The translations under genes and the position numbers were made by a program. Under the pieces are notes generated by a model that saw nothing but the letters and a program-made list of their open reading frames with translations, searched no databases and was not told the DNA's origin. Below are positions 31,838 through 50,800 of a stretch of DNA of 64,000 bases, piece after piece. Origin of the DNA: an uncultured delta proteobacterium (GTDB lineage: Bacteria; Desulfobacterota; Desulfobaccia; Desulfobaccales; 0-14-0-80-60-11); NCBI GenBank assembly GCA_963812015.1, contig CAWETI010000002.1, positions 768,001 through 832,000 on the forward strand, written 5' to 3'. Numbering within the stretch: the first letter of the stretch is position 1; each line of letters begins with the position of its first letter.

Positions 31838-32055
31838 CTGCTATGGCTGAGAACCTATCAAGACCCTAAAAACTTCCCATATCCAGAGCATATCAACACC
31901 TTTTACCCTGAGGGATTTCTGCCATTCTCGCCGGTAACCTGGCATTCCCCCAGCACCGACATCTGAAATAATCCTCTCCACAAAGGCCCCCGGAAGATAT
32001 CGAGATCATATCTGCAGTTTTTACTGGCTCGTGGATAAGTGAGGAGTGTGGCAAG
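31838..32055 (+). repeat. Cassette-site copy 6: long two-core form (218 bp)
   Basis: Cores ATAT-CCAGAGC-ATAT (31879) and ATAT-CGAGATC-ATAT (31997); ends GATAAGTG..GTGGCAAG directly at the IS110 left end. Confidence 0.87.
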
Positions 32056-32150
32056 TAACTATGATGCAAAGGAGAGCTCTGCCCGTCCTATCAGTTGGTG
32101 GTATCCTGGGATTCCAGACCAGTCTAACCACATCAAGATAGGAGGCTGCG

Positions 32151-33209
32151 ATGAGACGACCCAAGGGGCAGGTGAAAGGCGGAGAAGATTTATTTGTCGG
32201 GATCGACCTACATAAGAACAGGTGGCACATAACCGTTCGGACTTTTGACGTAGAGGTGTTCAGCGCCAGCATTCCAGGGACCTGGGAGTCTTTGCCCCGA
32301 GTTTTAGCTCGCTATCCCGGCCATCCCCTGCAGGCGGTCTATGAAGCCGGATATTTTGGATTTCGGCTTCATGACCGCCTGGTGGATCATGGCATCCCCT
32401 GCCTGGTTACTCCCCCCAGTCTGCTTCCCCAAGAATACGGCAACCGGGTCAAAACCGATCGGCGGGACAGCAGTAAGCTGGCGCATCTGTTGGCCAAAGG
32501 GATGCTGAAGCGGGTGTGGGTGCCCAGTGAAGAGGAACTTTATCACCGCCAGGTCATCCGTCGCCGCCGGCAGTTAGTCAGGGATCGGGTGCGGACCCAG
32601 AGTCGCATCAAGGCAGAGCTGAGGTTTTACGGAATTCGCCTAGAAGAACCACGAGGCAGATGGACCCAACTATACTGCGAGACTCTGCGGAGTATCAGGT
32701 TTGGGAACCGCTGGATGCAGGAGAGCTTCAACCGCCTGCTGGAGCAGTATAAATTTTTAAGTGCGCAGATCGATAAACAGACCCAACTGCTGCGGGAATT
32801 ATCCGAGACTGCTCTGTACCAGGAGCGAGTGGAGATTTTACAGAGCATCCCCGGTATCGGGATAATCTCTGCGATGGAACTGCTGCTGGAACTGCAGGAC
32901 GTGTCCCGTTTTCGACGGGCGGAACAACTGGCGGCTTACGTGGGTTTAACCCCGTCCCAATACTCCAGTGCGGATAAGGTGCGCATGGGCCGTATCACCG
33001 GCATCGGCAAGAATACCCTCCGGGCCATATTGGTGGAAGCCTCATGGAAACTGATCACCAAGGATCAGGTGATGCGCCAAAAGTACGAAAGGATCAAGAT
33101 CCGTTCGGGAGGGAAGCGTGCCATTGTCGCCATTGCCCGCACCCTGCTGCTGCGCATGAGGCGCATGTCGCTTGATGGTCAGGCATACGCCTTTCAACTG
33201 GCAGCTTAA
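32151..33209 (+). CDS. IS110 transposase/recombinase
   Basis: VGIDLHK, YEAG, KTDRRDS (DEDD domain); SIPGIG, AYVGLTP...SS. Confidence 0.95.
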   Translation: MRRPKGQVKGGEDLFVGIDLHKNRWHITVRTFDVEVFSASIPGTWESLPRVLARYPGHPLQAVYEAGYFGFRLHDRLVDHGIPCLVTPPSLLPQEYGNRVKTDRRDSSKLAHLLAKGMLKRVWVPSEEELYHRQVIRRRRQLVRDRVRTQSRIKAELRFYGIRLEEPRGRWTQLYCETLRSIRFGNRWMQESFNRLLEQYKFLSAQIDKQTQLLRELSETALYQERVEILQSIPGIGIISAMELLLELQDVSRFRRAEQLAAYVGLTPSQYSSADKVRMGRITGIGKNTLRAILVEASWKLITKDQVMRQKYERIKIRSGGKRAIVAIARTLLLRMRRMSLDGQAYAFQLAA

Positions 33210-33242
33210 GCATGCAAGTCCAACAAAAACCGGTTTAGGGTA

Positions 33243-33372
33243 TGGCGACTGATAACTGTGAGTGCCTTCCAATCGGCAACCACGTTGGCAAGTATGTCAG
33301 CCCTGATTGAATACCCCGGATTACTTACTTGCGGTCCCACCTGAGAGGGGAACCACGAATAGGAGACTGGCT
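33243..33372 (+). ncRNA. Putative bridge/seek RNA of the IS110 element
   Basis: Two stem-bounded internal loops carrying CTGATAACT/TTGGCAAGT (target-like) and TACTTACT/ATAGGAG (donor-junction-like). Confidence 0.7.
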
Positions 33373-33503
33373 TGGATTCTAACCGGATACTGCACCACCT
33401 CGGCTCTCTTGACTTTGCACATAGGAGTTAACAGAAGCAGTCACATGGTCTTCTGAACCTCTTCTGAGGGCATGAAGGGCTGGTTTATAGGAAGGGAATT
33501 CTT

Positions 33504-34004
33504 TCAAGGGGCGATCTTAGGGGCGGGGCAGGGAGCAGGGAGACCCCAATCCTGTAATTTGGCGAGGATGCAGGCCAGCAGCAGGGGCAGTATTGCTTGC
33601 AAGAGCTCAGAGAGCTCCAGGCCGGTTTCGATGATGTGGGGCTGGATACCGATGAGGCAGATTTCCCGGGGGGCGACGTCGAGGAGTTGGGCCGCGGCCA
33701 GCACGTCTATCAGGCCCAGATGATGCAGGGAATCTTTGCTGGTGAACAAGGCCGGAATCTCCTGATTTTCCAGGACGCCGATGCAGCCGGGCTCCTTGCG
33801 GAAATTTACCGCGTCGACAAAAATGACCCGGTCCCGGCCCTCGATGTAAGGGAGCAGGTCCAGACCGGCGGTGCCCCCATCCACGATTTCGAGGCCGGGG
33901 GGCATCAGGTAACGCGCCTCCAGGGCCCGAATGGCGTGGATACCTATGCCTTCGTCCCGGAGCAGGAGGTTGCCGAGACCTATTAAGGTTAGTTTTATTT
34001 CCAA
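33504..34004 (-). CDS. hybD: Hydrogenase maturation protease
   Basis: IGLGNLLLRDEGIG, DGGTAG, FVDAV, SLHH, GIQP. Confidence 0.88.
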   Translation of the reverse strand: MEIKLTLIGLGNLLLRDEGIGIHAIRALEARYLMPPGLEIVDGGTAGLDLLPYIEGRDRVIFVDAVNFRKEPGCIGVLENQEIPALFTSKDSLHHLGLIDVLAAAQLLDVAPREICLIGIQPHIIETGLELSELLQAILPLLLACILAKLQDWGLPAPCPAPKIAP

Positions 34005-34098
34005 ATGATCGGCCTCACGTCAAGCCGCCAAGGCGCCCAGTTAAAAAGGCGCGAGGCGCATTTGCATAAGCGCATCGGGATGAGCGTGCCTCCCAAAG

Positions 34099-34126
34099 AA
34101 GGGGCGGACCGCATGGTCCGCCCCTT
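34099..34126 (-). terminator. Strong hairpin between large-subunit and protease genes
   Basis: Perfect AAGGGGCGGACC-GCAT-GGTCCGCCCCTT. Confidence 0.6.
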
Positions 34127-34129
34127 GAA

Positions 34130-35830
34130 TTACAGAGCTTTGACCTCAACCATGGACTGGCCTTTGGGGTCCACCAAATGGATGGCGCAGGCCAGGCAGG
34201 GGTCAAAGGAGTGGACGGTGCGGACCACCTCCAGGGGTCGGTTGGGGTCGGCCACCGGGTTGCCCACCAGGGAGGCCTCGTAGGGGCCCAGAGCGTCGTT
34301 CTGGTTGCGGGGCCCGGAGTTCCAGGTGGAGGGCACCACGCACTGGTAGTTCTTGATCTTATTATCTTCGATGATCACCCAATGGGACAGGACGCCCCTA
34401 GGCGCCTCATGGAAGCCGAAGCCCCGGCTTTCGCCCGGCTTCATGGGGTATTTGTTGCAGATGGCGAGATCGCCCCTGGCGATGTTGTCCACCAAGGCCT
34501 GCCACTGGGTGTTGAGCTCATCATAAAGCACGGCGCAGCGGATGGCCCGGGCGGCGTGGCGGCCGATGGTGGAGTGGAGCGCCTCGAGCCCCACCTTGGC
34601 GCCAGCCAGCTTGCTAACGGTATCCAGGGCCAGAGTGGCGTACTTCTTGGTGGGCTCGTGGCCGGCGACGAACATGCAGAGGACGTTGGCCAGGGGGCCC
34701 ACCTGGGCCGGCTTGTCATAGAAGGACGGGGCCTTGACCCAGGAGTACTTGCCGTTGTCCTTGAAGCCGGTGTAATTGGGATCAGTGGATTCGTCATAGG
34801 GATGCTTGGTCCAATCACCCTTGTACCAGGAGTGCTTAATGGACTCCTTGACGCCCTCCCGGAAGTAGTCGTCGTGGTAGGAGGTGATGGGTTTGAAGCT
34901 CTTGAGGTCGGCGTTGGCGATGTAGCCGCCGGGCATGTTGAAGACCGTGCCCTTGGTGTCCATGGGCATGTCGGGCACCGACAGGTAATTGGTGACGCCG
35001 GCGCCGTACTTGGTCCAGTCGGCGTACATGGCGCCCACGGCGCAAACGTCCGGCAGGTAAACGTTCTTGACGAAGCCGCCCACTTCGTCGATGAGGGTCT
35101 TGATGTAATAGAGCCGCTCCATGTTGAGGGCGGAGGGGGAGTCCAGATTGATGGCGGTGGAGACGCCGCCGGGCACCAGGTTGGCGACGTGGGGCGTCTT
35201 GCTGCCCAGGATGGAGACGATCATGTTGGCCTTACGCTGGTAGTCCAGGGCCTGGAGGTAGTGGGCCACGGCCATAAGGTTGACCTCCGGGGGCAGCTTC
35301 ATGGCGGGATGGCCCCAATAGCCGTTGGCGAAGATGCCGAGCTGGCCCGAGGCCACAATGGCCTTGAGCTTGTCCTGGACGGCCTTCATCTCCTGGTAAC
35401 TGTTCCGGGGCCAGGAGGACAGACTGTCGGCCAGTTGGGCCGCTTTCTTCGGGTCGGCCTTGAGGGCGGAGGTGATGTCCACCCAGTCCAGGGCCGAGAG
35501 ATGGTAAAAATGCACCATATGGTCATGCACGGCGTGGGCGGCGATGATCAGGTTGCGAACGTACTGGGCGTTGAGGGGCACTTCCATCTTCAGGGCGTTC
35601 TCTATCGCCCGCACCGAAGCCAGGGCGTGGACCGTGGTGCAGACGCCGCAGATGCGCTGGGTGAAGGTGGGAGCATCCCGAGGGTCGCGGCCCTGGAGGA
35701 TGACCTCGATGCCGCGCCACATCTGGCCCGAGGACCAGGCGTTGGTGACTTTGCCGCCATCAACTTCACATTCTATGCGTAGATGCCCTTCGATCCTGGT
35801 TATGGGGTCGACGACAATTCTTTTAGCCAT
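34130..35830 (-). CDS. hybC: [NiFe]-hydrogenase large subunit (Hyb/group 1 type; Cys form, not NiFeSe)
   Basis: DPITRIEGH, RICGVC, DPCLACAIH with a cleavable C-terminal tail. Confidence 0.95.
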   Translation of the reverse strand: MAKRIVVDPITRIEGHLRIECEVDGGKVTNAWSSGQMWRGIEVILQGRDPRDAPTFTQRICGVCTTVHALASVRAIENALKMEVPLNAQYVRNLIIAAHAVHDHMVHFYHLSALDWVDITSALKADPKKAAQLADSLSSWPRNSYQEMKAVQDKLKAIVASGQLGIFANGYWGHPAMKLPPEVNLMAVAHYLQALDYQRKANMIVSILGSKTPHVANLVPGGVSTAINLDSPSALNMERLYYIKTLIDEVGGFVKNVYLPDVCAVGAMYADWTKYGAGVTNYLSVPDMPMDTKGTVFNMPGGYIANADLKSFKPITSYHDDYFREGVKESIKHSWYKGDWTKHPYDESTDPNYTGFKDNGKYSWVKAPSFYDKPAQVGPLANVLCMFVAGHEPTKKYATLALDTVSKLAGAKVGLEALHSTIGRHAARAIRCAVLYDELNTQWQALVDNIARGDLAICNKYPMKPGESRGFGFHEAPRGVLSHWVIIEDNKIKNYQCVVPSTWNSGPRNQNDALGPYEASLVGNPVADPNRPLEVVRTVHSFDPCLACAIHLVDPKGQSMVEVKAL

Positions 35831-35854
35831 ATTCACATTCTCCTTGACGCAAGG

Positions 35855-37000
35855 TTAGGCGTGCTCAGCCTCGGGCAGCACCGGGAATTTTTTGACGAAA
35901 TAGAGGTAGGCCATGAGTTCGATGGCCACGATTCCCAGGGTGATCAAAATTTCCGGGACGGCCGGGAAATAGTGCCACCCGGGCCCGGGGTTAAAGCCGA
36001 TGAGAAAGGTGTCGAACCGATAGAGGGAGCCTGCCAGGAGCAGGGAGCAGGACCCCAGGAACAGGAAGCGGAGGTCGCTCCTGAGCGAGGGGCTGACCGC
36101 GATCAGGACGGGCACCAGGTAAAAGAGATTCTCCAGGATGAACATGAAGCTCAGGAAGCCGCTGGTGAAGACCGGGGCGCCCCGGAACAGGAGGTCGACA
36201 AAACGGAGCACCAGGTAAGCTGCCACAACCCAGGCCATGACCCCGGTAAGCTTGGAGAGCATGGGAGTCTCAAAGGGTCGCTTGAAGGCGACCGAGGAGA
36301 GGATGGATTCGAAGGCCGTCACCCCAAAGCCCATGGCAATCGCCGAAAGCAGGAAGAACAGGGGCAGAAGGCTGGTCTGCCAGAGGGGCGAAAGCTTGTA
36401 GCCGGCAAGGACCATCAGGGTCCCCAGGGAAGACTGGTGCATGGTGGGCAGCAGGATGCCCACCGCGGCGATGACCGGCAGCCAGCGCTCCAAGCGCCGG
36501 CGGGTCTCCACGGCTTTGGCGTTGCCGGGGTAGCCCTCCAGAATGGTGGGCAGGAGTTCGATCCACAGGACCACCACGTAGGCGGCGATGCAGAGGGCTA
36601 CTTCCACCAGGACGGAGCTGAAGTTGGCCTGCCAGGGTAGGAAGAGCTTATAGCCGTTCCAATAGCGCCCGATGTCGAGGAAGATGGCCAGGCCCGCCAA
36701 ACTGTAACCGAAGACGCTGGTGAGTACGGCGGAGCGCACTACGGGGTGATACTCCCAGCGGTTAAAGACATAGATCAGGATGGCCGTGGCGTAGCCGCCG
36801 CAACCCAGGGCCGTGCCCACCAGGACATCGTATGTGATCCAGAGGCCCCAGGGATAGCCGTCGCTCAGGTTGGTGACTGCGCCCAGGCCGGCCATGAAGC
36901 GGTAGAGGATGAGGATGACCGCCACCACGGCCAGGGCCGCCAGGACCAGGAAGGGCTTGGTTACGATTTTGGGATGCAGATTAAGGGATTCGTCAGCCAT
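35855..37000 (-). CDS. hybB: Hydrogenase membrane subunit (NrfD/HybB family)
   Basis: TNLSDGYPWGLWI, LPTMHQSSLG, multiple TM helices. Confidence 0.92.
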   Translation of the reverse strand: MADESLNLHPKIVTKPFLVLAALAVVAVILILYRFMAGLGAVTNLSDGYPWGLWITYDVLVGTALGCGGYATAILIYVFNRWEYHPVVRSAVLTSVFGYSLAGLAIFLDIGRYWNGYKLFLPWQANFSSVLVEVALCIAAYVVVLWIELLPTILEGYPGNAKAVETRRRLERWLPVIAAVGILLPTMHQSSLGTLMVLAGYKLSPLWQTSLLPLFFLLSAIAMGFGVTAFESILSSVAFKRPFETPMLSKLTGVMAWVVAAYLVLRFVDLLFRGAPVFTSGFLSFMFILENLFYLVPVLIAVSPSLRSDLRFLFLGSCSLLLAGSLYRFDTFLIGFNPGPGWHYFPAVPEILITLGIVAIELMAYLYFVKKFPVLPEAEHA

Positions 37001-37012
37001 AGTGCCCTCCGT

Positions 37013-37978
37013 TCAAGGTAAATCCTGGTTGGTGGTATTTTTGTAGATCAGGTAAAAGAGGCCGCCGAGCAGGACGTAGGGGACGATCATGCCCTTATAG
37101 AGGGTATGATAGAGGGTCTCGGACTGGCTGGCGGTGGATGTAGGTGGCAACTGTGGTAGGTCCAATTTGTTGAAGGGGACGTTGGCCAACATGAGGACCT
37201 GGGTGCCGCCGCCTTCCCGGGCGCCATAGATGTGATTGATATACGGCGTCACCTTACGCTGGGTTTTGTCGGGCGAATCCACCAAGCGTAAGGGGTAATC
37301 GGCCATCTGCCCCGTGGTCAAAGACAACCGCCGTTTGGCTTCCTTCAGGAGATCCTGAACGTTGCCGTAGATCGAGGCGCCGGTGGGGCAGAACTCGCAG
37401 CAGGCCGAATAGCTGCCCTGGGCGATGCGATGGGAGCAAAGCTGGCACTTTTTGATCTGGGGAAAGGCTTTGTCCCACTCAAACTTGGGCACATTGTATG
37501 GGCAGGCTACCTGGCAGTATCGACAACCGATACAGACGTCCTTGTTATACGTAACGGCTCCGGTGTTGAGATCTTTGCTGAGGGCTCCCACCGGGCAGGC
37601 GGAGGTGCAGGAAGGATCGACGCAGTGCATGCAGAAGCGCCGGACGAAGGAGTAGCCGTTAATCGTCCGGTCTTTGACTTGGCCGGTGCCGTTGGTGTAA
37701 AGTTTAACGATGTTGTAGGTCTTGGCGGACAGGTCTATGGGATCGTCCCAGACGTTGTTGGGGTGGTAGTGGTCAGGGGGCAGATGGTTGTATTCTTTAC
37801 AGGCCGCCATGCAAGCCTTGCAGCCAATGCAGAGCGTGGCGTCGTAAAGAATACCCACGGCCTCGGGGAGGCGGGGTATGGGCTCTCGGGCTGCGGCCGG
37901 TACCGGGCTGAGACTGGACGCCAGCACCAGGCTCCCACTCGCGGAAACCTTGAGGAAATCTCGTCGGCTGAGTCCCAT
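37013..37978 (-). CDS. hybA: Hydrogenase 4Fe-4S subunit HybA
   Basis: Tat signal SRRDFLK; four ferredoxin Cys motifs; C-terminal TM. Confidence 0.92.
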   Translation of the reverse strand: MGLSRRDFLKVSASGSLVLASSLSPVPAAAREPIPRLPEAVGILYDATLCIGCKACMAACKEYNHLPPDHYHPNNVWDDPIDLSAKTYNIVKLYTNGTGQVKDRTINGYSFVRRFCMHCVDPSCTSACPVGALSKDLNTGAVTYNKDVCIGCRYCQVACPYNVPKFEWDKAFPQIKKCQLCSHRIAQGSYSACCEFCPTGASIYGNVQDLLKEAKRRLSLTTGQMADYPLRLVDSPDKTQRKVTPYINHIYGAREGGGTQVLMLANVPFNKLDLPQLPPTSTASQSETLYHTLYKGMIVPYVLLGGLFYLIYKNTTNQDLP

Positions 37979-37981
37979 AGT

Positions 37982-39178
37982 TTAGTCCTTCTTGGTCTCG
38001 GCGCCGGGGTCCGATTTTTCTTTGCCCAGCTTCATGGCGGCAACCGCGCCGGCGCCCACAGCCAGGCCGGCCAAACCGGCCGCCAGGCCCACGGCCGCGG
38101 TAGTAACGCCATGCCCCTCGGGGGCCTGAATGGGCGCAAAGGCGGTGGGCGGAGTCAGGCGCAGCTCCCCGCCCCCTACCCGGACTTTACCCTCCTCCAA
38201 GGGTAAACCCGCCGGGGTGAAATACGCCAGGCTGGCCTGTTCAGGTATGGGCTTGGTAAAGCCCACGCCCTTCTCGGAGCAGCCGAAGCAGGGGCAGCCG
38301 GTGCCCACCGGCCAGCTCCGGGGACCGACGTCGCCGAAGAGTTGCTCGGGGCAGTTGTTATAGGTCTCAGGCCCCTTGCACCCCAGTTTGTAGAGACACC
38401 AACCCCGACGATGGCCGTCGTCGCCGAACTCCAGGGCAAAGCGACCGGCGTCGAAATGCGCCCGCCGCTCGCAGCCCTCGTGGATGAGGCGGCGATAGGC
38501 AAATTTGGGCCGGGCCTTATCGTCCAGCTCGGGCAGTTTTTTGAAGGTCAGGACATAGAGCACGGTGGACAGGAAGTTATAAGGGTTGGGCGGGCAGCCC
38601 GGGATATTGATCACGGTAAATTTGCCGCCCAGGGCCTCGGCGGTGGACACGGCGCCGGTGGGGTTGGGAGAGGCCGAGGGGATGCCGCCCCAAGAGGCAC
38701 AGGAGCCGATGGCGATCACGGCCATGGCCTGGGGGGCGGTCTCTCTCAAGATGTCCAGCACCGGCCGGCCGCCGATCTGGCAGTAGATACCGCCGTCCTT
38801 GGTGGGAATAGAGCCGTCCGTCACCAGGATGAACTTACCCTGGTTTTCCGCAATGGATTTCGCCCTGGCTTCTTCCGCCAGGTGGCCCGAAGGCGTGCTC
38901 AGCGTTTCGTGATAATCGAGGGAGATGAGATCGAGGATCAGCTGCTCCACCGTGGGGTGGGTGGAGCGTAGCAGGGTTTCAGTACAGCCGGTGCACTCCT
39001 GGCCGGAGAGCCAAATGACCGGCGGACGCTTGAGGTTGGCAACTGCTTCGGCGATTTTGGCTCCCATGCCCAGGGGCAGCCCCATGCCCACCGCCGCAAT
39101 GGTGCAGAACTTCAAAAAATCTCGCCGCGATACCATTCCTAAATGCCTGGGGACCAGATCTGATTCGTGATCCTTCAT
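37982..39178 (-). CDS. hybO: [NiFe]-hydrogenase small subunit
   Basis: Tat SRRDFLKFC; ECTGC, GSCASWGG, PGCPPNP, CLYKLGCKGP; C-terminal TM. Confidence 0.93.
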   Translation of the reverse strand: MKDHESDLVPRHLGMVSRRDFLKFCTIAAVGMGLPLGMGAKIAEAVANLKRPPVIWLSGQECTGCTETLLRSTHPTVEQLILDLISLDYHETLSTPSGHLAEEARAKSIAENQGKFILVTDGSIPTKDGGIYCQIGGRPVLDILRETAPQAMAVIAIGSCASWGGIPSASPNPTGAVSTAEALGGKFTVINIPGCPPNPYNFLSTVLYVLTFKKLPELDDKARPKFAYRRLIHEGCERRAHFDAGRFALEFGDDGHRRGWCLYKLGCKGPETYNNCPEQLFGDVGPRSWPVGTGCPCFGCSEKGVGFTKPIPEQASLAYFTPAGLPLEEGKVRVGGGELRLTPPTAFAPIQAPEGHGVTTAAVGLAAGLAGLAVGAGAVAAMKLGKEKSDPGAETKKD

Positions 39179-39509
39179 AGATCCTCCATTGTAATAGGTG
39201 AGGTCGGGAGTTTTTCCCTCCTTGACGCCTTGTTAGCGCGGATGCACCGGTTGAACCTTATGAATTTTTCTCTCCTAAGATCCTCCTCAAGTTGAGGTTG
39301 GTCATACCTTAAAACCCACGGGCAAACAAATTTCAACGATCTGTGCTTGGCGCTTCCGGTGGTCTACAGATTTTGGCAGTTGCCAGATACCCCGCCCTAC
39401 AGAAAGCGGCGCTCGTCTGACTTAGGCCCAAGGTTGGAATCTGCCGTTCTGAGAAGGGCAGGGAATGGCGGCGAGGTTAAAGAAGGGAATGAAACGGGGA
39501 AAACCGTAC

Positions 39510-39699
39510 TTAGATTTCTTTACTCCCAGGCGCCCCTGCGGTTCTCAGTCGGGCTGATGGCGAGAGCCTTACCAAGGCCTCTCGGTAAACCTGGGTTCAG
39601 GATCTGCCGGAACCGGGGAAGAGCAAACGTAGCACCTGGGAATCACCTCCTTTGTTGAGGATGGGAAGCATTATAAAACCGAGTGCCAAACAAATGCAA
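39510..39699 (-). promoter_or_regulatory. Leader module A: sigma70 promoter, SD, 12-codon ORF, TGA and SECIS-like hairpin
   Basis: TTGCAT-N18-TATAAT; AAGGAGGTG; GTG 39635; TGA 39599-39597; CGAGAGGCCTT-GGT-AAGGCTCTCG. Confidence 0.6.
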
Positions 39700-39845
39700 T
39701 AGTTATTTCACAAAGGGTTATAGGCTTCCCCCTGCCATCGGGTTTTGGGACAGTTATGCAACCAGCCTGAGGGTGGCTGTTCAAATGCCTTCCTTTTCAC
39801 GGGGAGGGAGGAACCAGGTTGGCTGATGAGCAGACAAGAAAATTG

Positions 39846-40044
39846 TTGAATGGCATATCCTATCACCCTACAATGAAGCGAACTTTAGAAAAGGAGGTGG
39901 TTCCGGGTGTATCGGCCGTTTATTCCCATTAAGGTGAAATCCTGAAGCTCAGGCGACCGCAGAGCCTTGGTAAGGCTCTTGCTAGTATCCAGACTGGTAA
40001 GGGGTGGGGCGGATCACCTGGGATCGAGGTTTCCTTCGGATTAG
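39846..40044 (+). promoter_or_regulatory. Leader module B: sigma70 promoter, SD, 12-codon ORF, TGA and SECIS-like hairpin
   Basis: TTGAAT-N17-TACAAT; AAGGAGGTG; GTG 39907; TGA 39943-39945; GCAGAGCCTT-GGT-AAGGCTCTTGC. Confidence 0.6.
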
Positions 40045-40403
40045 CTGCACAAGTCCGGCGTTTCCTTCTGTAAGGTAAGACCTCCCCAAGTTACTATCCC
40101 TGTTAATCCCATCCAACCTGTGGTCTCTAATTCAATAACTACCTGATTAATTTTGATATTTCTGCGTTGCGGCGCGCTTGCCTAGTGCTGCGCCACGATG
40201 GAAGAAGACTGCCCGCAATGGTCGGCCCATCGCCCAGATGGACAAAACCTTCGTGGTTTCCTTGAACGGGCCATCGACATGGTCCATTTCCGGGATCAGC
40301 AGGTCACGTCTTCCCTTGCTTTGGCTTGTTAAGGTGAGGCTACACTAAACCACAAAGGAGTATTAATGGCAGTGATTGTCAGACAACCAAGCAAGGAGAA
40401 GGA

Positions 40404-40670
40404 ATGAAACAACATCAGGATTATCCCGGCAGACGAGACTTTATTAAAACTGCGGCCATGACGGTGGTCGGGGCGGCGTTGCCCTTGAACCTGGCCCAGG
40501 CGCAGAAGTTTGCCGTGGATCATTTGCAGGTCTGGTCCTGCGGGGGCCTGGCCGAAGCCATGATGCCCGCCAATCAACTCTATGAGCAGAAAACCGGGGT
40601 CAAAATCAGTTATACGGGGGCCTTTGCCGCGGCCTTGGGGAAGTCCCTCCTGGGCAGCGCCCAGACCGAG
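40404..40670 (+). pseudogene. Truncated Tat-exported ModA-like substrate-binding protein
   Basis: GRRDFIK Tat motif; LQVWSCGGLAEA...YTGAFAAALGKSLL; apparent similarity ends near 40670. Confidence 0.7.
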
Positions 40671-40683
40671 GGGCCGCGACCAC

Positions 40684-40965
40684 ATTTCCGCCATGGAAGT
40701 GGGGGGGTGGTTTGAAGGTGCAATTTATTTTATTGTGGGGTGCGGCAGGCGGCGTAATTCGCCATCGGCCATATCCCTGGCGTGGTTAATTTTTCATTGC
40801 GTCCAACCTGGCAAGGTGGTCTTTTAATGAGCTGGCCTTGCCTGAGTCCGGAGCGACTCCGCAGCCCGGGTGGCTGTCAAGCTTGGCTATCAGAACGTTT
40901 ACCGTGATCCCCACGGCTTTCCGGAATGGCAGAAAAGAGGGTTGCCGGAGGCCAAAGGCTCCTGA
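40684..40965 (+). pseudogene. Decayed rhodanese with two in-frame TGA codons at active-site Cys positions
   Basis: FAIGHIPGVVN (frameshifted), then KVVF-TAA-TGA-AGLA-TGA-VRSDSAARVAVKLGYQNVYRDPHGFPEWQKRGLP. Confidence 0.72.
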
Positions 40966-40999
40966 TCACAAGGGGAGAAAATGCTGAGGAGGAATAACG

Positions 41000-41752
41000 A
41001 TGTTCGGATATCGGAGAAAATTCAATTGGACCATGGCAGCAGTATTATTATTTCTACTTTGTCTGCTTGTGCCTGCACCAGCGCCGGCGCAAATGCCACA
41101 GACAGTTGCGCCGAAGGAACCTGCCGGGGTCGGCGTAGAGATTTCCACGGAGGAATTGAAGCAGATTCTGGCCAACAAATCCGAACCCGTGGTTGACGTG
41201 CGCACATCCAAAGAGTATGCCATCGCCCATATCCCCGGCAGCATCCATATCTATGAAAAGGATATGGATAAACTGATGCAGCTCCTCCCCGACAAGAAGG
41301 CGGGCATGGTAATTTACTGCAATGGGCCGTATTGCCACAAAGTCAAGCGAGTGGCCGAACAACTGTTCACGAAGGGCTACACTAACATCAAACGCTACCA
41401 GATGGGCATGCCGGTTTGGAGGGCGTACGGCAATTCCGTGCAGACGGATATGGCAGGTTGTAAATACATCTTTCCAAAGGACAAAACCGCCGTATGGGTT
41501 GATGCCCGCCCCAAGGAGGAATTCGCCAAAGGGACTGTCCCCGGGGCGGTGAACGTCCAGGCGGGAGAGGTTAAGGTGGCGAATGAAGATGGGCGTCTGC
41601 CTTACACCGACAAGGGGACGCGGATCGTGGTCTTTGCCGACAATCCGGAGATGGCCCGGAAAGTCGCGGAGGAGATCGCCCACACGGCTTTCTGGAACTG
41701 CAGCTACTTCGGGGGCCCATTCGCAGACCTGAGGCAGGCCGGCCTGTGGTAA
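41000..41752 (+). CDS. Exported tandem rhodanese-domain protein
   Basis: Signal peptide; VDVRTSKEYAIAHIPG, IYCNGPYC; second domain VDARP..GTVPGA lacks the Cys. Confidence 0.88.
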   Translation: MFGYRRKFNWTMAAVLLFLLCLLVPAPAPAQMPQTVAPKEPAGVGVEISTEELKQILANKSEPVVDVRTSKEYAIAHIPGSIHIYEKDMDKLMQLLPDKKAGMVIYCNGPYCHKVKRVAEQLFTKGYTNIKRYQMGMPVWRAYGNSVQTDMAGCKYIFPKDKTAVWVDARPKEEFAKGTVPGAVNVQAGEVKVANEDGRLPYTDKGTRIVVFADNPEMARKVAEEIAHTAFWNCSYFGGPFADLRQAGLW

Positions 41753-42782
41753 AGGGACGTACAACGCACTCCCCACGCAGCCGACATGGCGCTATCTATC
41801 CCATCATTCCAGGGAGGCAGCCGTATCGATGTTTTTAATATTCGTTTTAAATCCATGCTCGATAGACACAATTCAGAATGCGATTGGCCCGGTCTGCCTG
41901 AAGGTTTATGCTTTCCGCCTCCTTGAAGCAATTTCTTGATTTTTCGGGCTGGGCCATTCCGCACCCAATATTGCCTTATACCGAAACTAATCTGATTTTT
42001 ATTTCTGACAGAGTCGACATTTTGCCTACAAGCTACAGTGTCGATCACTGCTATATTTCCGCACTTCTCCTCCCGGCATTTGGCTTGCTGATATGCTCAC
42101 CATATATTGACCTCTGACCCAACCTCGCTCTCTATCTCCCTCAACCTAATAACCCATGGGTCGAAGCGTTTAGGGGCTCCAGAAGCATGTACACGCTTTT
42201 TAGGGGCATTTTAAGAGGCAGGATGTTTGTCTTCTATAGATCCCAGGGCCAGCTAAATTTTGCGCTTGAAAATTATGGGGTGGGTCCCTTGAGCAGGGGG
42301 GATTGGCGCCATCCCGATCCGGTCTGGAGCCAAGTTTTTTGATGTCGTGATGAGATCATCATGGGCCCCCGGGGAGGTCTCCCCTCATCACCAGGTTTCA
42401 GAGTACCAACAGCTCCATGGGGTGTCTGAAAGTCGGCCACCAATTCCCCCCCAAAAAAGATTTTTGGGTTTGAAATTTCTGGGAGGTGGGGGTATAGGGG
42501 GGGGTCTTTTTCTCACAGCCACCCCCAATTATCACGAAAAACATTTTTGGGGATTTTGTCCGTGCCACCCTTTAGAAGACAATGGGGGCTATGGGACCCA
42601 ATCCCGGGGTTTGCCTCTCGAGGCAGAAAATCCTCCAGAATGGCTGCGGCGCCGGGTGAGGGGAACCGCACCGAGCAGTTTGTGCATGGTGCACGCCGGG
42701 GGGCGGGCAAGGTTATGGTACCCCATTTGGTACCCATGAACAATAATGGGGTTAGCCTTATTAGTTAACCCCTTGTTTTCCT

Positions 42783-47081: not shown

Positions 47082-47816
47082 TCACCGGCCCCAGGCCACT
47101 GAAAGCCAGGCTTCTTTTAGGCGGACCGAGACCGCCGGACAGGTTTCTCGGCCCCCCGGAAAAGTCCCGTCCGGGTCTGGATTTCCCAGGCATCCGTGCC
47201 AGAGATAGCCGTGCTCTCCTGGGCCGGCAAATTGGACCTCCACCTGCCGGGGGCTCAGAAAGTGAAAACCACAGCCCCAAGCCTTCACCACCGCCTCTTT
47301 AACCGACCACAATAGGGCTGCGGCCTCTTCCCGGTTCCCCGCGGTCAGGGTAACCGCTGCCTGCCACTCCGATTCCATGAAGACCCGCTGGTGCGGATAG
47401 GACCCGGCGAATTCCCCGGGGGCGGCTGCATCCAATCCGAGACCCCTCTCAGACCTGCCTACAGCCGCCCACAGCCGTCCGGCGCTCCAACTAAAGGAAA
47501 GGGCCGGGCCGACGACAGCGGCGTCCAGCCAAATCTGGGGCTTGCCCAGGGGGTCCCGCCTCAGGGTCAAGTCCGGCAGCTTCCGCTCCAGCAAGTGCTG
47601 CGCCAGAAAGCGGGCCAGGGACTCCTTTGCCGCCTGCCGGTGACAGCGGCCTTCCCATCCCGGCGCGCAGGAGCGCAAAGCCGCGGGCGTTGAAGCCACC
47701 AGGGCCGGTTCGCCCCGGGGAGAAAAAAATACCGGCGCCACCAGCGTGGGTCTTTGGTTTGGACCGGCACTGAGGCCTCCGGCCTGGGCCGGGATTCTGT
47801 TCTGAAGCGGTCTCAT
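47082..47816 (-). CDS. 4'-phosphopantetheinyl transferase
   Basis: RDPLGKP, LSFS, GLGLD, LWSVKEAVVKA; ATGA overlap with the PKS stop. Confidence 0.85.
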   Translation of the reverse strand: MRPLQNRIPAQAGGLSAGPNQRPTLVAPVFFSPRGEPALVASTPAALRSCAPGWEGRCHRQAAKESLARFLAQHLLERKLPDLTLRRDPLGKPQIWLDAAVVGPALSFSWSAGRLWAAVGRSERGLGLDAAAPGEFAGSYPHQRVFMESEWQAAVTLTAGNREEAAALLWSVKEAVVKAWGCGFHFLSPRQVEVQFAGPGEHGYLWHGCLGNPDPDGTFPGGRETCPAVSVRLKEAWLSVAWGR

Positions 47817-50800
47817 TCCGAAAAGGAGTGCAGCCTGAGCCCCCGCACCTTCATGAGGGGCTGGCCGTCGGCGTCCAGGGCCTGGGCATCCCAGGTAAAT
47901 CCATTGGAGTCCTCGTCCTGCAAGCGGGCCTCCAGGATCACCCGCTCTTGATTCCGGCAACGGCGGGTGAAGGACATGGCCTCGATACGCACCGGGATGA
48001 AGGTGCGCTCATCCTCCTCATTCCGCATGACAATGTAAAAATTGGTCATCTGCATGAGGGCCTCCATCACGTAAGGGGAATACTGGAGACTGGGAGCCTG
48101 CAGGTGGGAAAAATCCATCTCGGTCCGGTACGCAGCCGCGCCCCGCACTAGGCCCGGCCCGGAGCCGTCCAAATGCTCTATTACCCGATATCTCCCCTGC
48201 ATAGCGGTCCGTTGGTCATACCAACCGATAATTTTCTCCAACTCCTCCGTCCTGGTGTCCAGGTCCTCGAGCTTCAGTGGAAATCCCGGCAGATTGGGCC
48301 AGGCAGGCGGCGCCGCCCCGCTTAAAACCACTTGGGCCCGATAGTTGATGTCCTTCTTGTCCAGCACTTTCCCGGTGGGGGAGAGGAGGGGGGACTCCAT
48401 GGTGAGTTGGCACACCACCTCACCTCCAGGCTCCCGGAGGCGGTGGCAAGTGATGATGGAATTGATCGCTACCTCCGGCGGCACTTCGATGGCCTCCAGA
48501 AACTCCACCTCCCTGACCTCCCTGACCTCCAGGTAAGGGTAAAGCAGGCGGGCGGCCTCCATGAAGGTTTCCAGGGCCATGATGGCGGACACCAAGGGGT
48601 GTTTCAGAAACTTGAAAGGCTTATGGTCGGCGATCCACAGGTCCCGCTCCCGGGAGAACACCCGGGAAGCCTGCAGCACGCCCGCCTGGAGATCCAGATA
48701 GGAGATGGCGTCAATTAGGGGGAATTGTTCCGGCGCAAAGACCATGGCGCCGTCCTGGAGGCCCGGTGGGGCTGGTTTCGGGTCGGCGGTATCCAGCCGG
48801 AGATGCTTGATCTCTGGGAGCCGGGACATAAACATGACCCACACGTCCTGGGGACCGGTCAAAAAAAGCTCCCGGCAAAAGAGTTCCTTTAGTTCCTGGG
48901 GTTCCAGATATCCGACCCCCATCTTCTCCAGCAGGCGACGGAGGTCCGGGTTATCGGCCATGCCGCCGCCGCTGATAGGCGGCAGGCTCAGGGCCTTGCA
49001 CAGGATAGCCGGGTGTTGCGCCTTAATCTGACTCAACAGGGCCGACATCATCCGGTTGGCGGCGGTGTAATTGGTCTGGCCGCGGTTCCCCTGGATGGCC
49101 GCAACCGAAGACAGGGCCACCACGAACCGCAACCCGGCTTCGGAAGCGGCGTTGAACAGGTTCCAGGCGCCTTTGAATTTGACATCCAGGACTGCGGCCA
49201 CCTCCTCGGGATTAAGGTGGGCCAGCAGCTTGTCCCGCAACACCCCGGCCCCATGGACCAGGCCATCGATTCGGCCGTAACGCCGGATAATTTCGTTGAC
49301 TGTCTCCTGCACCTGGTCCGGATACGTCACATCACAGGAGAGATAAGCCACCTCCATGCCGGCGGCCCGCAACTCTTCCAGGCTCTGCATAACCTGCCGG
49401 GCCTGAAACAGGCGGGCCAACTCCTGCTGCAGAGCCTCCTGGGAAATATCTGGTCTTTGCTGCATGATCTGCCAGCGCAAGGCCTTTTCCGAGGGTTCCT
49501 CAGCCAGCAGCAGTTTGCTGATTTCTTCGTCCAGGTCGATGGCGGTCCGTCCCAGTAAGACTACCTGGGGATTGAAAGTCGCCAAACATTCCACCAGATG
49601 GGTGGTGATGCCGTAGCCGCCCCCGGAGAACACCAATACGTCACCACGGTTCAATGCCAGCGTGGGTTCGCTCATTCCTTCCACCAGGACCACCCGCCCT
49701 GCGGTGGTCATGACCTGCCCCTGGCGGTACCAGGTATCGATGACCGGCTGCTGCGGGTCCAGCGCCTGGCGCAAGGCCGGCAGCAGTTTGGTCTCCCGGT
49801 CCAGCCGCACCGTGCGGAAGAGCAAGTCGGGGTACTCCAGGGCGGCGCTCAGGAAGAGTCCCAAAAGGCCCTGGGATAACAAGTGTTCCTCTCCGGCCTC
49901 GTCCGGGGAACGATGCAAGGCCAGGGCAAATTTTTTCCGAGACGCGGCCCCCAGGGATTGCAGCAGCGGGAAGCAACCTGCGAGCAAACAGGGCAGGTCA
50001 TCCATTCCCTGGAGCCTGCAGGTGAAGCTATCATCCAGGAGTATTACCAATCCGGCCAGGGAGGGGTCTGCGCTCAGCTTGAGGGCCGCCTGGCGAGCCC
50101 CTTCCGGCTGGCGCAGGTCAAACCCCGTGCCTTCGGGCCCGGCCTCCAGAAAAGCCAGGGACTGGACGGCGCACCCCCACTCCCGGCGGAATAGTTCGCT
50201 GACCTCTTCCAGCCACGCCGAACTGCCGCCGGGGTAAAGGATAGCCACTGTATCCGACGACGTCAGTTCAAGCGGCTGGGGGCTGAAATCGGGCAAAGGC
50301 ACCGGCCCAAAGACCACCCGCTTGAGGGGCTTCACCTGGCCCAAAGGCGCGTCCACGGCTGCTCCGGAGGCTGCCGGGGCCGCCTGGGCCCCGGCCGGCG
50401 GCGTTTCCCTGCCTTCACCTCGGGCCACCACCTCGGAGATGCGGGAAGCCAGCTCCCGGACGGTGCGGACATCCAGAAAGTCCTCCAGTCGAATTTCGAT
50501 GCCAAAACGGCTCTCCGCGGCGTCTATGATCACGGGAAAACGGCTGGAGCGAATGGCCAGGTCGGATCGCAGGTCCATATCCGGCTCAATCTCATCCCTC
50601 TCGTACCCGGTGGCCTCCATGATGAGGCCGATCACCTCTTCGAGATAGTCGGCGCCCGCTTCCGGTAAGGCCCGGGGTGGCGAGGGAGAAGGTTCAACGG
50701 CTGGCAATGGGGCTGCCGCCAGCGTCGTCGCCGGGTTATTGGATGGAACCACCGGGGGGGTCCAAGCAGCCTGCCGTGATTGCAAGAGCTGCTCCAGGTT

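Follow-up and report, generated by a model that had tools for sequence, protein, structure and literature searches.

The stretch of DNA analysed here, called the window in what follows, comprises 64,000 nucleotides (nt) from the 3.96-Mb genome bin of an uncultured member of the Desulfobaccales (C2:768001-832000), and at 39510-40044 it holds two divergent modules, A on the minus strand and B on the plus strand, which stand back-to-back and share a mean column identity of 75% when aligned. Each has a sigma-70-type promoter, a ribosome-binding site, a GTG start codon, a frame of 12 codons ending in TCC-TGA and, beyond the UGA, a hairpin that resembles a bacterial selenocysteine insertion sequence (SECIS); 23 bases separate UGA and loop in A and B alike, and the first G of the loop is nt 27 when the U of UGA is counted as 1. 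These elements had been picked out in an initial annotation, and all of them are in the sequence, as is a frame that stays open past the UGA in the translations of both modules (Table 1). The promoter of B is returned by the scan tool for sigma-70 promoters; that of A was found by eye and by a looser pattern, and the stricter scan does not list it. Module A faces the operon of a [NiFe] hydrogenase, which is of the Cys type, as annotated, and module B faces a locus whose decay (a truncated gene and rhodanese fragments) is plain, while the selenoprotein origin assigned to it is putative. Judging from these modules and their homologues, we propose that each is probably the 5' leader of an operon, an attenuator that senses selenocysteinyl-tRNA (Sec-tRNA) through recoding of the UGA and drives a selenium-starvation regulon.

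Table 1. Features of leader modules A and B and of the genes downstream of them, in window positions (P1 and H2 are the two helices described in the text)
Feature	Position	Strand	Details and basis
Leader A promoter	39670..39699	-	-35 TTGCAT (39699->39694), 18-nt spacer, -10 TATAAT (39675->39670)
Leader A ribosome-binding site	39644..39653 (39653->39644)	-	AAAGGAGGTG; conserved across alignments
Leader A reading frame	39600..39635	-	GTG (39635->39633) + 11 codons, last codon TCC; peptide MLRLLFPGSGRS
Leader A UGA, codon 13	39597..39599 (39599->39597)	-	proposed selenocysteine sensing codon
Leader A SECIS-like hairpin	39562..39583 (39583->39562)	-	DNA GAGAGGCCTT-GGT-AAGGCTCTC, RNA GAGAGGCCUU-GGU-AAGGCUCUC; loop at nt 27-29 from U of UGA
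Leader A P1 5' strand	39633..39642	-	UUCCCAGGUG, start codon inside; covariation; present in minimum-energy fold of whole leader
Leader A P1 3' strand	39523..39532	-	CGCCUGGGAG; within read-through frame; also part of H2 5' side
Leader A read-through frame	39510..39596	-	28 codons, then TAA (39512->39510); translation of the open reading frame (ORF)
Leader A H2 5' arm	39534..39558	-	within read-through frame, just 3' of SECIS-like hairpin; 25-nt inverted repeat, 76% complementary
Leader A H2 3' arm	39439..39463	-	in C-rich, G-poor tract (about 39430-39509) after read-through stop
Leader B promoter	39846..39874	+	TTGAAT, 17-nt spacer, TACAAT; sigma-70 scan
Leader B ribosome-binding site	39890..39899	+	AAAGGAGGTG; sequence
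Leader B reading frame	39907..39942	+	GTG (39907-39909) + 11 codons; peptide MYRPFIPIKVKS; sequence, ORF translation
Leader B UGA	39943..39945	+	first in-frame stop
Leader B SECIS-like hairpin	39961..39979	+	DNA AGAGCCTT-GGT-AAGGCTCT, RNA AGAGCCUU-GGU-AAGGCUCU; sequence, structure alignment
Leader B P1 5' strand	39902..39909	+	UCCGGGUG; partner CACCUGGGA at 40015-40023; structure alignment
Leader B read-through frame	39946..40044	+	32 codons, then TAG (40042-40044), P1 3' strand inside; ORF translation
C/U-rich tract after leader B read-through stop	40045..40125	+	H2 basal helix poor here, longest Watson-Crick run 4 bp
Operon downstream of leader A, five genes	33504..39178	-	[NiFe] hydrogenase, Pfam/NCBIfam
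Hydrogenase small subunit	37982-39178	-	
4Fe-4S protein	37013-37978	-	
NrfD-type membrane subunit	35855-37000	-	
Hydrogenase large subunit	34130-35836	-	C-terminal DPCLAC, Cys-type
Hydrogenase maturation protease	33504-34004	-	
Genes downstream of leader B	40404..41752	+	Pfam/NCBIfam
Truncated Tat-signal solute-binding protein	40404-40715	+	103 aa
Frameshifted rhodanese fragments	about 40716-40960	+	..FYCG.. and ..VKLGYQNVYRDPHGFPEWQKRGLPEAK
Intact secreted double-rhodanese protein	41000-41752	+	

A third, diverged copy of the leader lies elsewhere in the same genome, upstream of a TIM-barrel gene and a selD with an in-frame UGA (..RAAGUAAKIPPG..). A first covariance model, built on three own-genome copies, returned two further copies from this genome, matches in 32 of 36 genomes of the same family and one weak match in 14 genomes of a sister family. 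The second model was built on 35 aligned copies and found the leader in 59 of the 68 other family genomes and in 0 of the 14 sister-family genomes; with the own genome counted, which holds seven copies (five distinct), the leader is present in 60 of 69 genomes of this uncultured Desulfobaccales family. Applied to an even sample of the phylum, the second model recovered all four family members and, among 146 genomes of other families, one strong case and one spurious weak match. The strong case, a conforming leader from another family (L209, G218:C183:689-837, minus strand, with GTG, 12 codons, TGA and hairpin), sits on a 2.3-kb contig and could reflect either a horizontal transfer or a mis-binned contig. 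When one genome per species was scanned for the exact pattern, 72 loci were obtained, 71 of them in metagenome bins that bear the label Desulfobaccales, Syntrophobacterales, Syntrophales, Desulfobacterales, Desulfobacca, Deltaproteobacteria, Proteobacteria or Thermodesulfobacteriota; the remaining locus, in a Bacteroidaceae bin, is probably a chance match.

From the 116 model matches that were aligned, four were dropped (L206 and L207, which are weak and lack the architecture, and one match each in L142 and L150 that merely echoes a true leader on the antisense strand), and the register of L196 was shifted by one base, which leaves 112 leaders, all distinct, as the basis of the counts given below. 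That a covariance model of three copies finds the architecture 112 times places it far beyond chance. The twin arrangement is itself recurrent, being found at 3 of 109 loci examined. Divergent pairs occur in two other genomes, at L034 (1501-1653 minus, 1804-1950 plus) and at L169 (1301-1451 minus, 1646-1797 plus), and in one example of the other twin pairs one leader points towards hdrA and the other towards a TIM-barrel/selD operon.

The architecture is strongly constrained. The start codon is GTG in 109 leaders, ATG in two and TTG in one, a strong ribosome-binding site precedes it in all 112 (of the GGAGG type, conserved across the leader alignments with a few variants), and the frame measures 12 codons in 106 leaders, 10 in four, 9 in one and 11 in one. 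Upstream, the pattern TTGnnn-N16-18-TAnnnT is found in 103 leaders, ending about 32 nt before the start codon, and the -10 element is exactly TATAAT in 60 of these. The first in-frame stop is TGA in 112 of 112 (followed by A in 95, G in 14, C in two and T in one), no homologue having UAA or UAG in its place, while the stop that closes the read-through frame varies (TAA 55, TAG 31, TGA 26). In all 112 leaders the frame past the UGA stays open over 26 codons or more, as compared with 34 and 66 leaders for the other two frames, and its length ranges from 26 to 65 codons, 31-32 being commonest. The hairpin follows the consensus GCCUU-GGY-AAGGC, with loops of GGC (55 leaders), GGU (50) and GGA (one), and its first loop G is at nt 27 in 97 leaders and at nt 24-28 in nine; the pattern is unmatched in the other six. 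The 60 nt after the read-through stop are rich in C (0.31-0.41) and poor in G (0.14-0.15), and the segment preceding them is G-rich (G 0.43).

Within subfamilies, the variation at codon positions 1/2/3 amounts to 104/86/154 in codons 2-12 and to 345/345/356 in the read-through part. Codon 4 specifies Pro with four codons in use (CCG 27, CCC 24, CCA 11, CCT 9), codon 11 is Lys or Arg and codon 12 Ser or Thr, the peptide following the pattern M-[YHN]-R-P-hydrophobic-...-K-S. The excess of third-position changes, together with a Pro written in all four of its codons, argues for selection on the 12 residues at the peptide level, and the 12-codon frame thereby appears to be translated. The initial annotation had placed the conservation at the nucleotide rather than the peptide level, a view that had to be corrected once many homologues could be compared. 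Past the UGA the situation is different: the frame is open yet lacks codon-position bias, which argues that the transit of ribosomes alone is selected there. A small CCUG..CAGG hairpin at the UGA, which had also been annotated, is present in some leaders but not in all subfamilies, being absent, for example, from the MauE group.

In bacterial SECIS elements, the apical loop lies about 16-37 nt from the UGA. The genome itself offers genuine selenocysteine (Sec) sites for comparison, recognised by homology and an in-frame TGA: several HdrA and MvhD paralogues carry TGA at conserved Cys positions, and selD is of the Sec type. The loops of these own-genome sites lie within nt 24-35, and three sites have GGN triloops at nt 24-26 or 27-29, namely one in HdrA (GUCG-AGGU-CGGC, GGU at nt 27-29), one in MvhD (ACCU-GGA-AGGU, loop at nt 27-29) and another MvhD site (ACCU-GGC-AGGU, loop at nt 24-26). 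The leader hairpin has both the loop type and the position of these genuine sites, and the leaders show the other features of SECIS-type signals, with a hairpin 3' of an in-frame UGA, exposed loop Gs and a frame that continues past the UGA. On the reading proposed here, the leader hairpin would bind SelB and direct Sec insertion at the UGA. The machinery that such decoding would need is encoded in the own genome (selA, selB, the Sec-encoding selD and tRNA-Sec), and selB scores above the cut-off in 57 of 61 relatives, the exceptions (G003, G014, G028 and G057) each being incomplete or having a fragmentary or just-sub-threshold selB match. A loose genome-wide search pattern, UGA followed by a CCU-GGN-AGG hairpin, was also tried and rejected, its matches being mostly due to chance.

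The genes that follow the leaders point in the same direction. A leader always lies upstream of its genes and on their strand, and a recognised gene lies within 1.3 kb in 104 of 112 cases. Counted by the first recognisable same-strand gene downstream, with names from Pfam and NCBIfam, the targets are MauE/DoxX followed by a rhodanese (29 leaders), MvhD (FlpD), often with an HdrC/D-like protein next (23), a double-cubane-cluster reductase (11), YedF with YedE or SelD (11), HdrA (8), the putative selenium transporter YedE (8; TIGR04112, 485 bits), a TIM barrel with Sec-containing SelD (7), a hydrogenase small subunit (2), an HdrC/D-like protein (2) and, with one leader each, a binding protein, a transglutaminase-like protein and an FdhA fragment; no gene was recognised after eight leaders. 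Selenium-metabolism genes thus stand beside Cys homologues of selenoproteins. At the two positions that hold Sec in own-genome paralogues, the MvhD proteins encoded behind leaders have Cys throughout (23 of 23 and 21 of 21 alignments that reach the position), and so does HdrA encoded behind leaders at the position of Sec in its own-genome paralogues (7 of 7); the model search of the own genome found no leader at any of its Sec-type hdr/mvh clusters. The gene set parallels the selenium-starvation response of Methanococcus maripaludis, for which the passages of PMC11097638 that deal with it describe the induction of Cys isoforms, of yedE and of a binding protein of the molybdate type.

Four Sec-type hdrA/mvhD clusters with in-frame TGA at a conserved Cys lie at C3:702075-708832, C3:2010010-2018215, C2:3019-7805 and C2:991609-996494, and one of them adjoins a homologue of the Mvh-type hydrogenase large subunit (C3:708476). 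In-frame stops in a few of the downstream alignments were considered as Sec sites and rejected, as they are alignment overhangs or likely frameshifts. In L179 and L184, TGA codons inside the leader-linked rhodanese genes fall at non-conserved positions and are probably frameshifts or assembly errors, not Sec.

Two long-range helices recur in the leader RNA. In the first, P1, the region of the start codon (UCCCAGGUG) is paired with CACCUGGGA, which lies some 110 nt farther downstream; the helix covaries, one of its pairs being AU in 34, GU in 10, CG in nine, GC in seven and UG in six rows of alignment A4. The second, H2, joins the stretch that follows directly on the hairpin to the distal end of the C-rich tract, in sequences that vary by subfamily (for example CAGGCUGG/CCAGCCUG, GCGCUGGA/UCCAGCGU, CUGAGAA/UUCUCAG and GGUUAGCAAGG/UUUUGCUAGCC). 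A basal H2 helix of at least six Watson-Crick pairs is found in 94 of 111 leaders with their own arms, as compared with 47% when the 5' arms are swapped between subfamilies and 31% when the 3' arms are shuffled; for at least seven pairs the values are 50 of 111, 18% and 9%. These counts are restricted to Watson-Crick pairs because the longest helix with G-U pairs barely discriminates (own 8.13, swapped 7.74, shuffled 7.38). P1 and H2 share the CACCUGG strand, and, as the 3' strand of P1 can also pair with a CAGGUA-like motif in the tract, the two helices would compete. In leader A, the full sequence folds into P1 (-77.9 kcal/mol, z-score -2.6), and the sequence without its 5' part folds into H2 (-57.4 kcal/mol, z-score -3.1). 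Folding 325-nt leaders to minimum energy with the ribosome footprints masked was uninformative, and from MAFFT with RNAalifold on whole leaders of each subfamily, whose variable 3' parts align poorly, nothing emerged beyond P1, the hairpin and, for part of the groups, H2. The genome encodes rho (712.6 bits, above the cut-off), and this, together with the two alternative helices and the C-rich, G-poor tract, suggests Rho-dependent control.

A further conserved motif, CGCCUGAAUCUUCAGG followed by a U-rich stretch, is seen in HdrA-type leaders, L031 among them, about 110 nt past the read-through stop, and in leader B at about 40150-40180. It resembles the UGA region of the leader (AUCCUGAAGCUCAGG) and is complementary to the bases just 3' of the UGA (CUCAGGCG). 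A possible reading is that CGCCUGAAUCUUCAGG and CUCAGGCG form an outer helix, H3, whose 5' strand would be covered by a ribosome waiting at the UGA.

Taken together, these observations lead us to a model in which selenium supply is measured on the ribosome; we think it somewhat likely, with less assurance than for the sensing leader as such, that read-through with Sec-tRNA flips an RNA switch and thereby shuts off the genes for selenium uptake and activation along with the Cys-type replacements. The sigma-70-type promoter would start transcription roughly 25 nt ahead of the ribosome-binding site, which is very strong, and a ribosome would translate the 12 codons and meet the UGA and the SECIS-like hairpin at the spacing of a genuine Sec site. 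If SelB and Sec-tRNA(Sec) are available, Sec would be inserted and the ribosome would run for about 31 more codons, a course that takes it across the hairpin, the H2 5' arm and the P1 3' strand, to halt just before the C-rich, G-poor tract. If Sec-tRNA(Sec) is scarce, the ribosome would end or stall at the UGA and leave the downstream stretch untranslated. The position of the ribosome would then select the fold, either P1 or H2, in which the segment after the hairpin and CACCUGG pair with the C-rich tract. Without Sec, H2 may bury the tract and let transcription or translation enter the operon, the ON state; with Sec, the ribosome may hold H2 open, and the exposed tract could serve for Rho loading or for masking of the next ribosome-binding site, the OFF state. 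This polarity is suggested by the nature of the target genes and could be the reverse. The regulon so controlled would have three parts: selenium uptake and activation (yedE, yedF, selD), giving feedback on Sec supply; Cys substitutes for selenoproteins (HdrA and MvhD); and redox genes ([NiFe] hydrogenase, MauE with rhodanese, double-cubane reductase) with a putative link to selenoenzymes.

The alternative that survives best keeps the Sec read-through sensor and makes its output translational, CCUCC-like anti-ribosome-binding-site motifs in the tract masking the site from which the first structural gene is translated, except when the G-rich read-through segment pairs with these motifs. CCUCC is present once or more in 63 of 111 tracts, with a mean of 0.89 per tract as against 0.42 in shuffles, the duplexes that the G-rich segment and the C-rich tract can form average -42 kcal/mol, and the lack of a conserved intrinsic terminator also speaks for this output. 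The sites to be masked, however, lie 130-570 nt downstream at variable distance, and shuffling the tract does not worsen its pairing with the ribosome-binding site of the leader itself (group mean z-scores from -2.3 to +1.1, near zero in the larger groups; the energies of one group are invalid, one of its sequences being cut by a contig end). We regard this translational output as unlikely, and its variant of opposite polarity, in which the operon is ON with selenium, fits the Cys-isoform targets poorly.

It is rather improbable that the hairpin binds SelB or another protein without any decoding of the UGA, the short frame simply ending there. The near-invariance of the apical stem and loop does suggest sequence-specific recognition, and the SelB-binding SECIS-like 5' element reported for E. 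coli, to which we return below, would be a parallel. A binding site of this kind leaves unexplained why the frame is open past the UGA in every leader, why the hairpin keeps the exact SECIS distance and why the short frame has a fixed length of 12 codons. Equally, the occurrence of UGA, SECIS-like hairpin and open downstream frame in all copies might be taken to denote a genuine small selenoprotein of about 45 residues (12 + Sec + about 31) with a function of its own. Such a protein seems most improbable: the read-through part lacks third-position bias and varies widely in length, as described above, no Cys partner or redox motif (CxxU/UxxC) accompanies the Sec, whose context is K-S-U-[ST]-[SP]-G, and in four of the first 35 aligned leaders (L022, L030, L036 and L039) a non-triplet indel before the hairpin causes the latter to be read as GLGKAL, not ALARL. 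Just as implausible is a general sensor of translation or termination (of release factor 2 (RF2) activity, or a nascent-peptide stall at the UGA) or a trans-acting small RNA with no specific link to selenium, which would accord with the conserved leader peptide, with the reading of UGA by RF2 alone and with the strong promoter that each leader has of its own, but not with the selenium-specific targets (selD, yedE/yedF, Cys isoforms of selenoproteins), the SECIS-like geometry, the constant position of the leader upstream of nearby same-strand genes or the want of a conserved terminator that would end a small RNA.

Several observations weigh against the Sec-sensing attenuator that we favour, or limit how far it can be carried. 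Regarding the sample, the family is uncultured and each of the genomes is a metagenome bin (with an estimated contamination of 5.7% in the own case), and the counts overstate the independent support because the leader sequences are related to one another. The co-occurrence with Sec machinery, which the initial annotation had put forward as a check and which turned out favourably, is non-discriminating, since every genome of the clade, with or without a leader, has that machinery. An Rfam scan of 38800-40800 with E up to 10 gave chance-level matches only and no family; eight regions with genuine own-genome Sec sites, scanned as a control, matched no family either. The apical stem GCCUU/AAGGC is near-invariant (four of its five pairs are unchanged in 75-79 of 81 rows and the fifth in 72 of 81), unlike that of ordinary SECIS elements, so that the hairpin may have another or an additional partner. 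As to the switch, L031 forms H2 in both folds with non-significant z-scores, and the P1/H2 switch may not be general; shuffling of the tract weakens the duplex between G-rich segment and C-rich tract to a modest degree only (mean z-scores -1.2 and -1.06); no conserved intrinsic terminator was found in the leaders, loose candidates occurring in 34 of 112 at scattered positions and none near A or B; and the argument for Rho is one of base composition. Among the targets, the selD under leader control itself encodes Sec, which complicates a simple logic of ON only without Sec, just 2 of 112 leaders are linked to a hydrogenase, and for the hydrogenase behind leader A the own genome yielded no close paralogue with Sec. 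On balance, the Sec-dependent leader attenuator first suggested in the annotation is favoured by the homologue stops, the hairpin position, the machinery and the downstream genes, evidence that is comparative in kind.

The surroundings of the twin modules contain several repeats. A segment of 4,063 bases (window 38004-42066) recurs inverted at C2:292294-296356 with 99.9% identity. Besides the two leaders, it contains the hydrogenase small-subunit gene almost in full, the truncated gene for the binding protein and the rhodanese gene; in the second copy the small-subunit gene extends only to residue 393 and no large subunit adjoins it. This may be a real duplication or an assembly artefact. Within the segment, a 22-nt direct repeat of 82% identity links window 39310-39331 with 39674-39695, by which part of the leader A promoter (ATTTGTTTGGCACTCGGTTTTA, minus strand) recurs about 130 nt upstream of the start of the small-subunit gene, and leader A could be bypassed by way of this repeat, as another promoter or as a shared operator. 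Beside the duplicated segment, window 42048-42612 matches C2:1665358-1665920 (92%). Farther off, window 31963-33428, around an ORF (32151-33209) for a 352-residue protein that looks transposase-like by eye, matches C3:886935-888041 (85%), and window 22333-23848 matches C3:1010659-1012174 (99.7%). An ORF of 2,661 residues on the minus strand (window 47813-55798) has, by eye from its translation, the look of a multidomain enzyme of the polyketide or fatty-acid synthase type.

If the proposal is true, these leaders would be the first bacterial selenium sensor and the first natural attenuator based on stop-codon recoding to be described. They would also serve as an annotation marker, in that they would assign Cys isoenzymes and so far unlinked genes to the response to selenium limitation, the newly indicated genes being MauE/DoxX with rhodanese, the double-cubane reductase and the TIM-barrel protein next to selD. 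They would furthermore be the natural counterpart of engineered attenuators based on rare amino acids, and a compact selenium-responsive genetic switch. We found no published description of a Sec-codon leader in a search whose coverage left subscription journals largely outside, and in a 2026 review of prokaryotic selenoproteomes the strings 'leader' and 'attenuat' do not occur; the relevant passages of PMC3892789 likewise treat a natural attenuator based on a rare amino acid as unreported. In sulfate reducers, selenium-dependent switching between hydrogenases is on record as a phenomenon (Valente et al. 2006, as cited in the part of PMC4215793 that concerns it), and for Methanococcus maripaludis the selenium-sensing step is stated to be unknown in the corresponding passages of PMC11097638. 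A leader that measures Sec decoding would answer the question of selenium sensing for one bacterial clade.

How the leaders compare with known systems is best seen by starting from those concerned with selenium. In Methanococcus, HrsM is a LysR-type repressor of Cys-isoform genes, and there, as proposed here, Cys isoforms and yedE go up under selenium starvation; HrsM is an archaeal protein transcription factor whose signal is unknown according to the same passages of PMC11097638, whereas the sensor proposed here is a cis-acting RNA with a leader peptide. As a precedent, fdhF(Sec) of Treponema primitia comes nearest among the selenium-related cases; there, in the account given in the relevant part of PMC3892789, an undecoded UGA/SECIS uncouples translation from transcription and the transcript is truncated. 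In that case UGA and SECIS lie inside the selenoprotein gene, which is ON with selenium (PMC3892789, same part). The leaders described here differ in that a dedicated frame of 12 codons stands before genes that are mostly without Sec.

Outside the biology of selenium, the closest formal likeness is with the attenuators trpL, hisL, leuL and pheL, in which a short leader frame contains codons for the sensed amino acid and the position of the ribosome chooses the RNA fold. As in those systems, the output would govern supply genes, here selD and yedE/yedF for Sec. Unlike them, the sensing codon would be a recoded stop that needs a SECIS hairpin and SelB, the lack of aminoacyl-tRNA would lead to termination or a pause at a stop rather than to a stall at a sense codon, no conserved intrinsic terminator is present, and the regulon includes Cys substitutes for selenoenzymes. 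For E. coli selAB, Thanbichler and Bock reportedly described in 2002 a SECIS-like, SelB-binding element of the untranslated 5' leader, and it shares with the present leaders a hairpin that ties SelB to the expression of selenium genes; that element reportedly has no upstream frame with an in-frame UGA, blocks initiation and serves a single locus rather than a regulon. The leader stop as a point of decision is known from tnaC of the E. coli tryptophanase operon, whose leader stop is UGA, and from mgtA and corA, where the fate of the ribosome near the stop decides the loading of Rho on a C-rich site. The C-rich, G-poor tract that begins at the read-through stop, and the rho gene of the genome, would allow a similar course here, with Rho in a presumed role, but the proposed signal is Sec-tRNA and not free tryptophan, Mg2+ or proline. 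Lastly, at the frameshift site of prfB an in-frame UGA senses release factor through a +1 frameshift inside RF2's own gene, and the leaders would resemble it in that the decoding efficiency of one in-frame UGA is used as the sensor.

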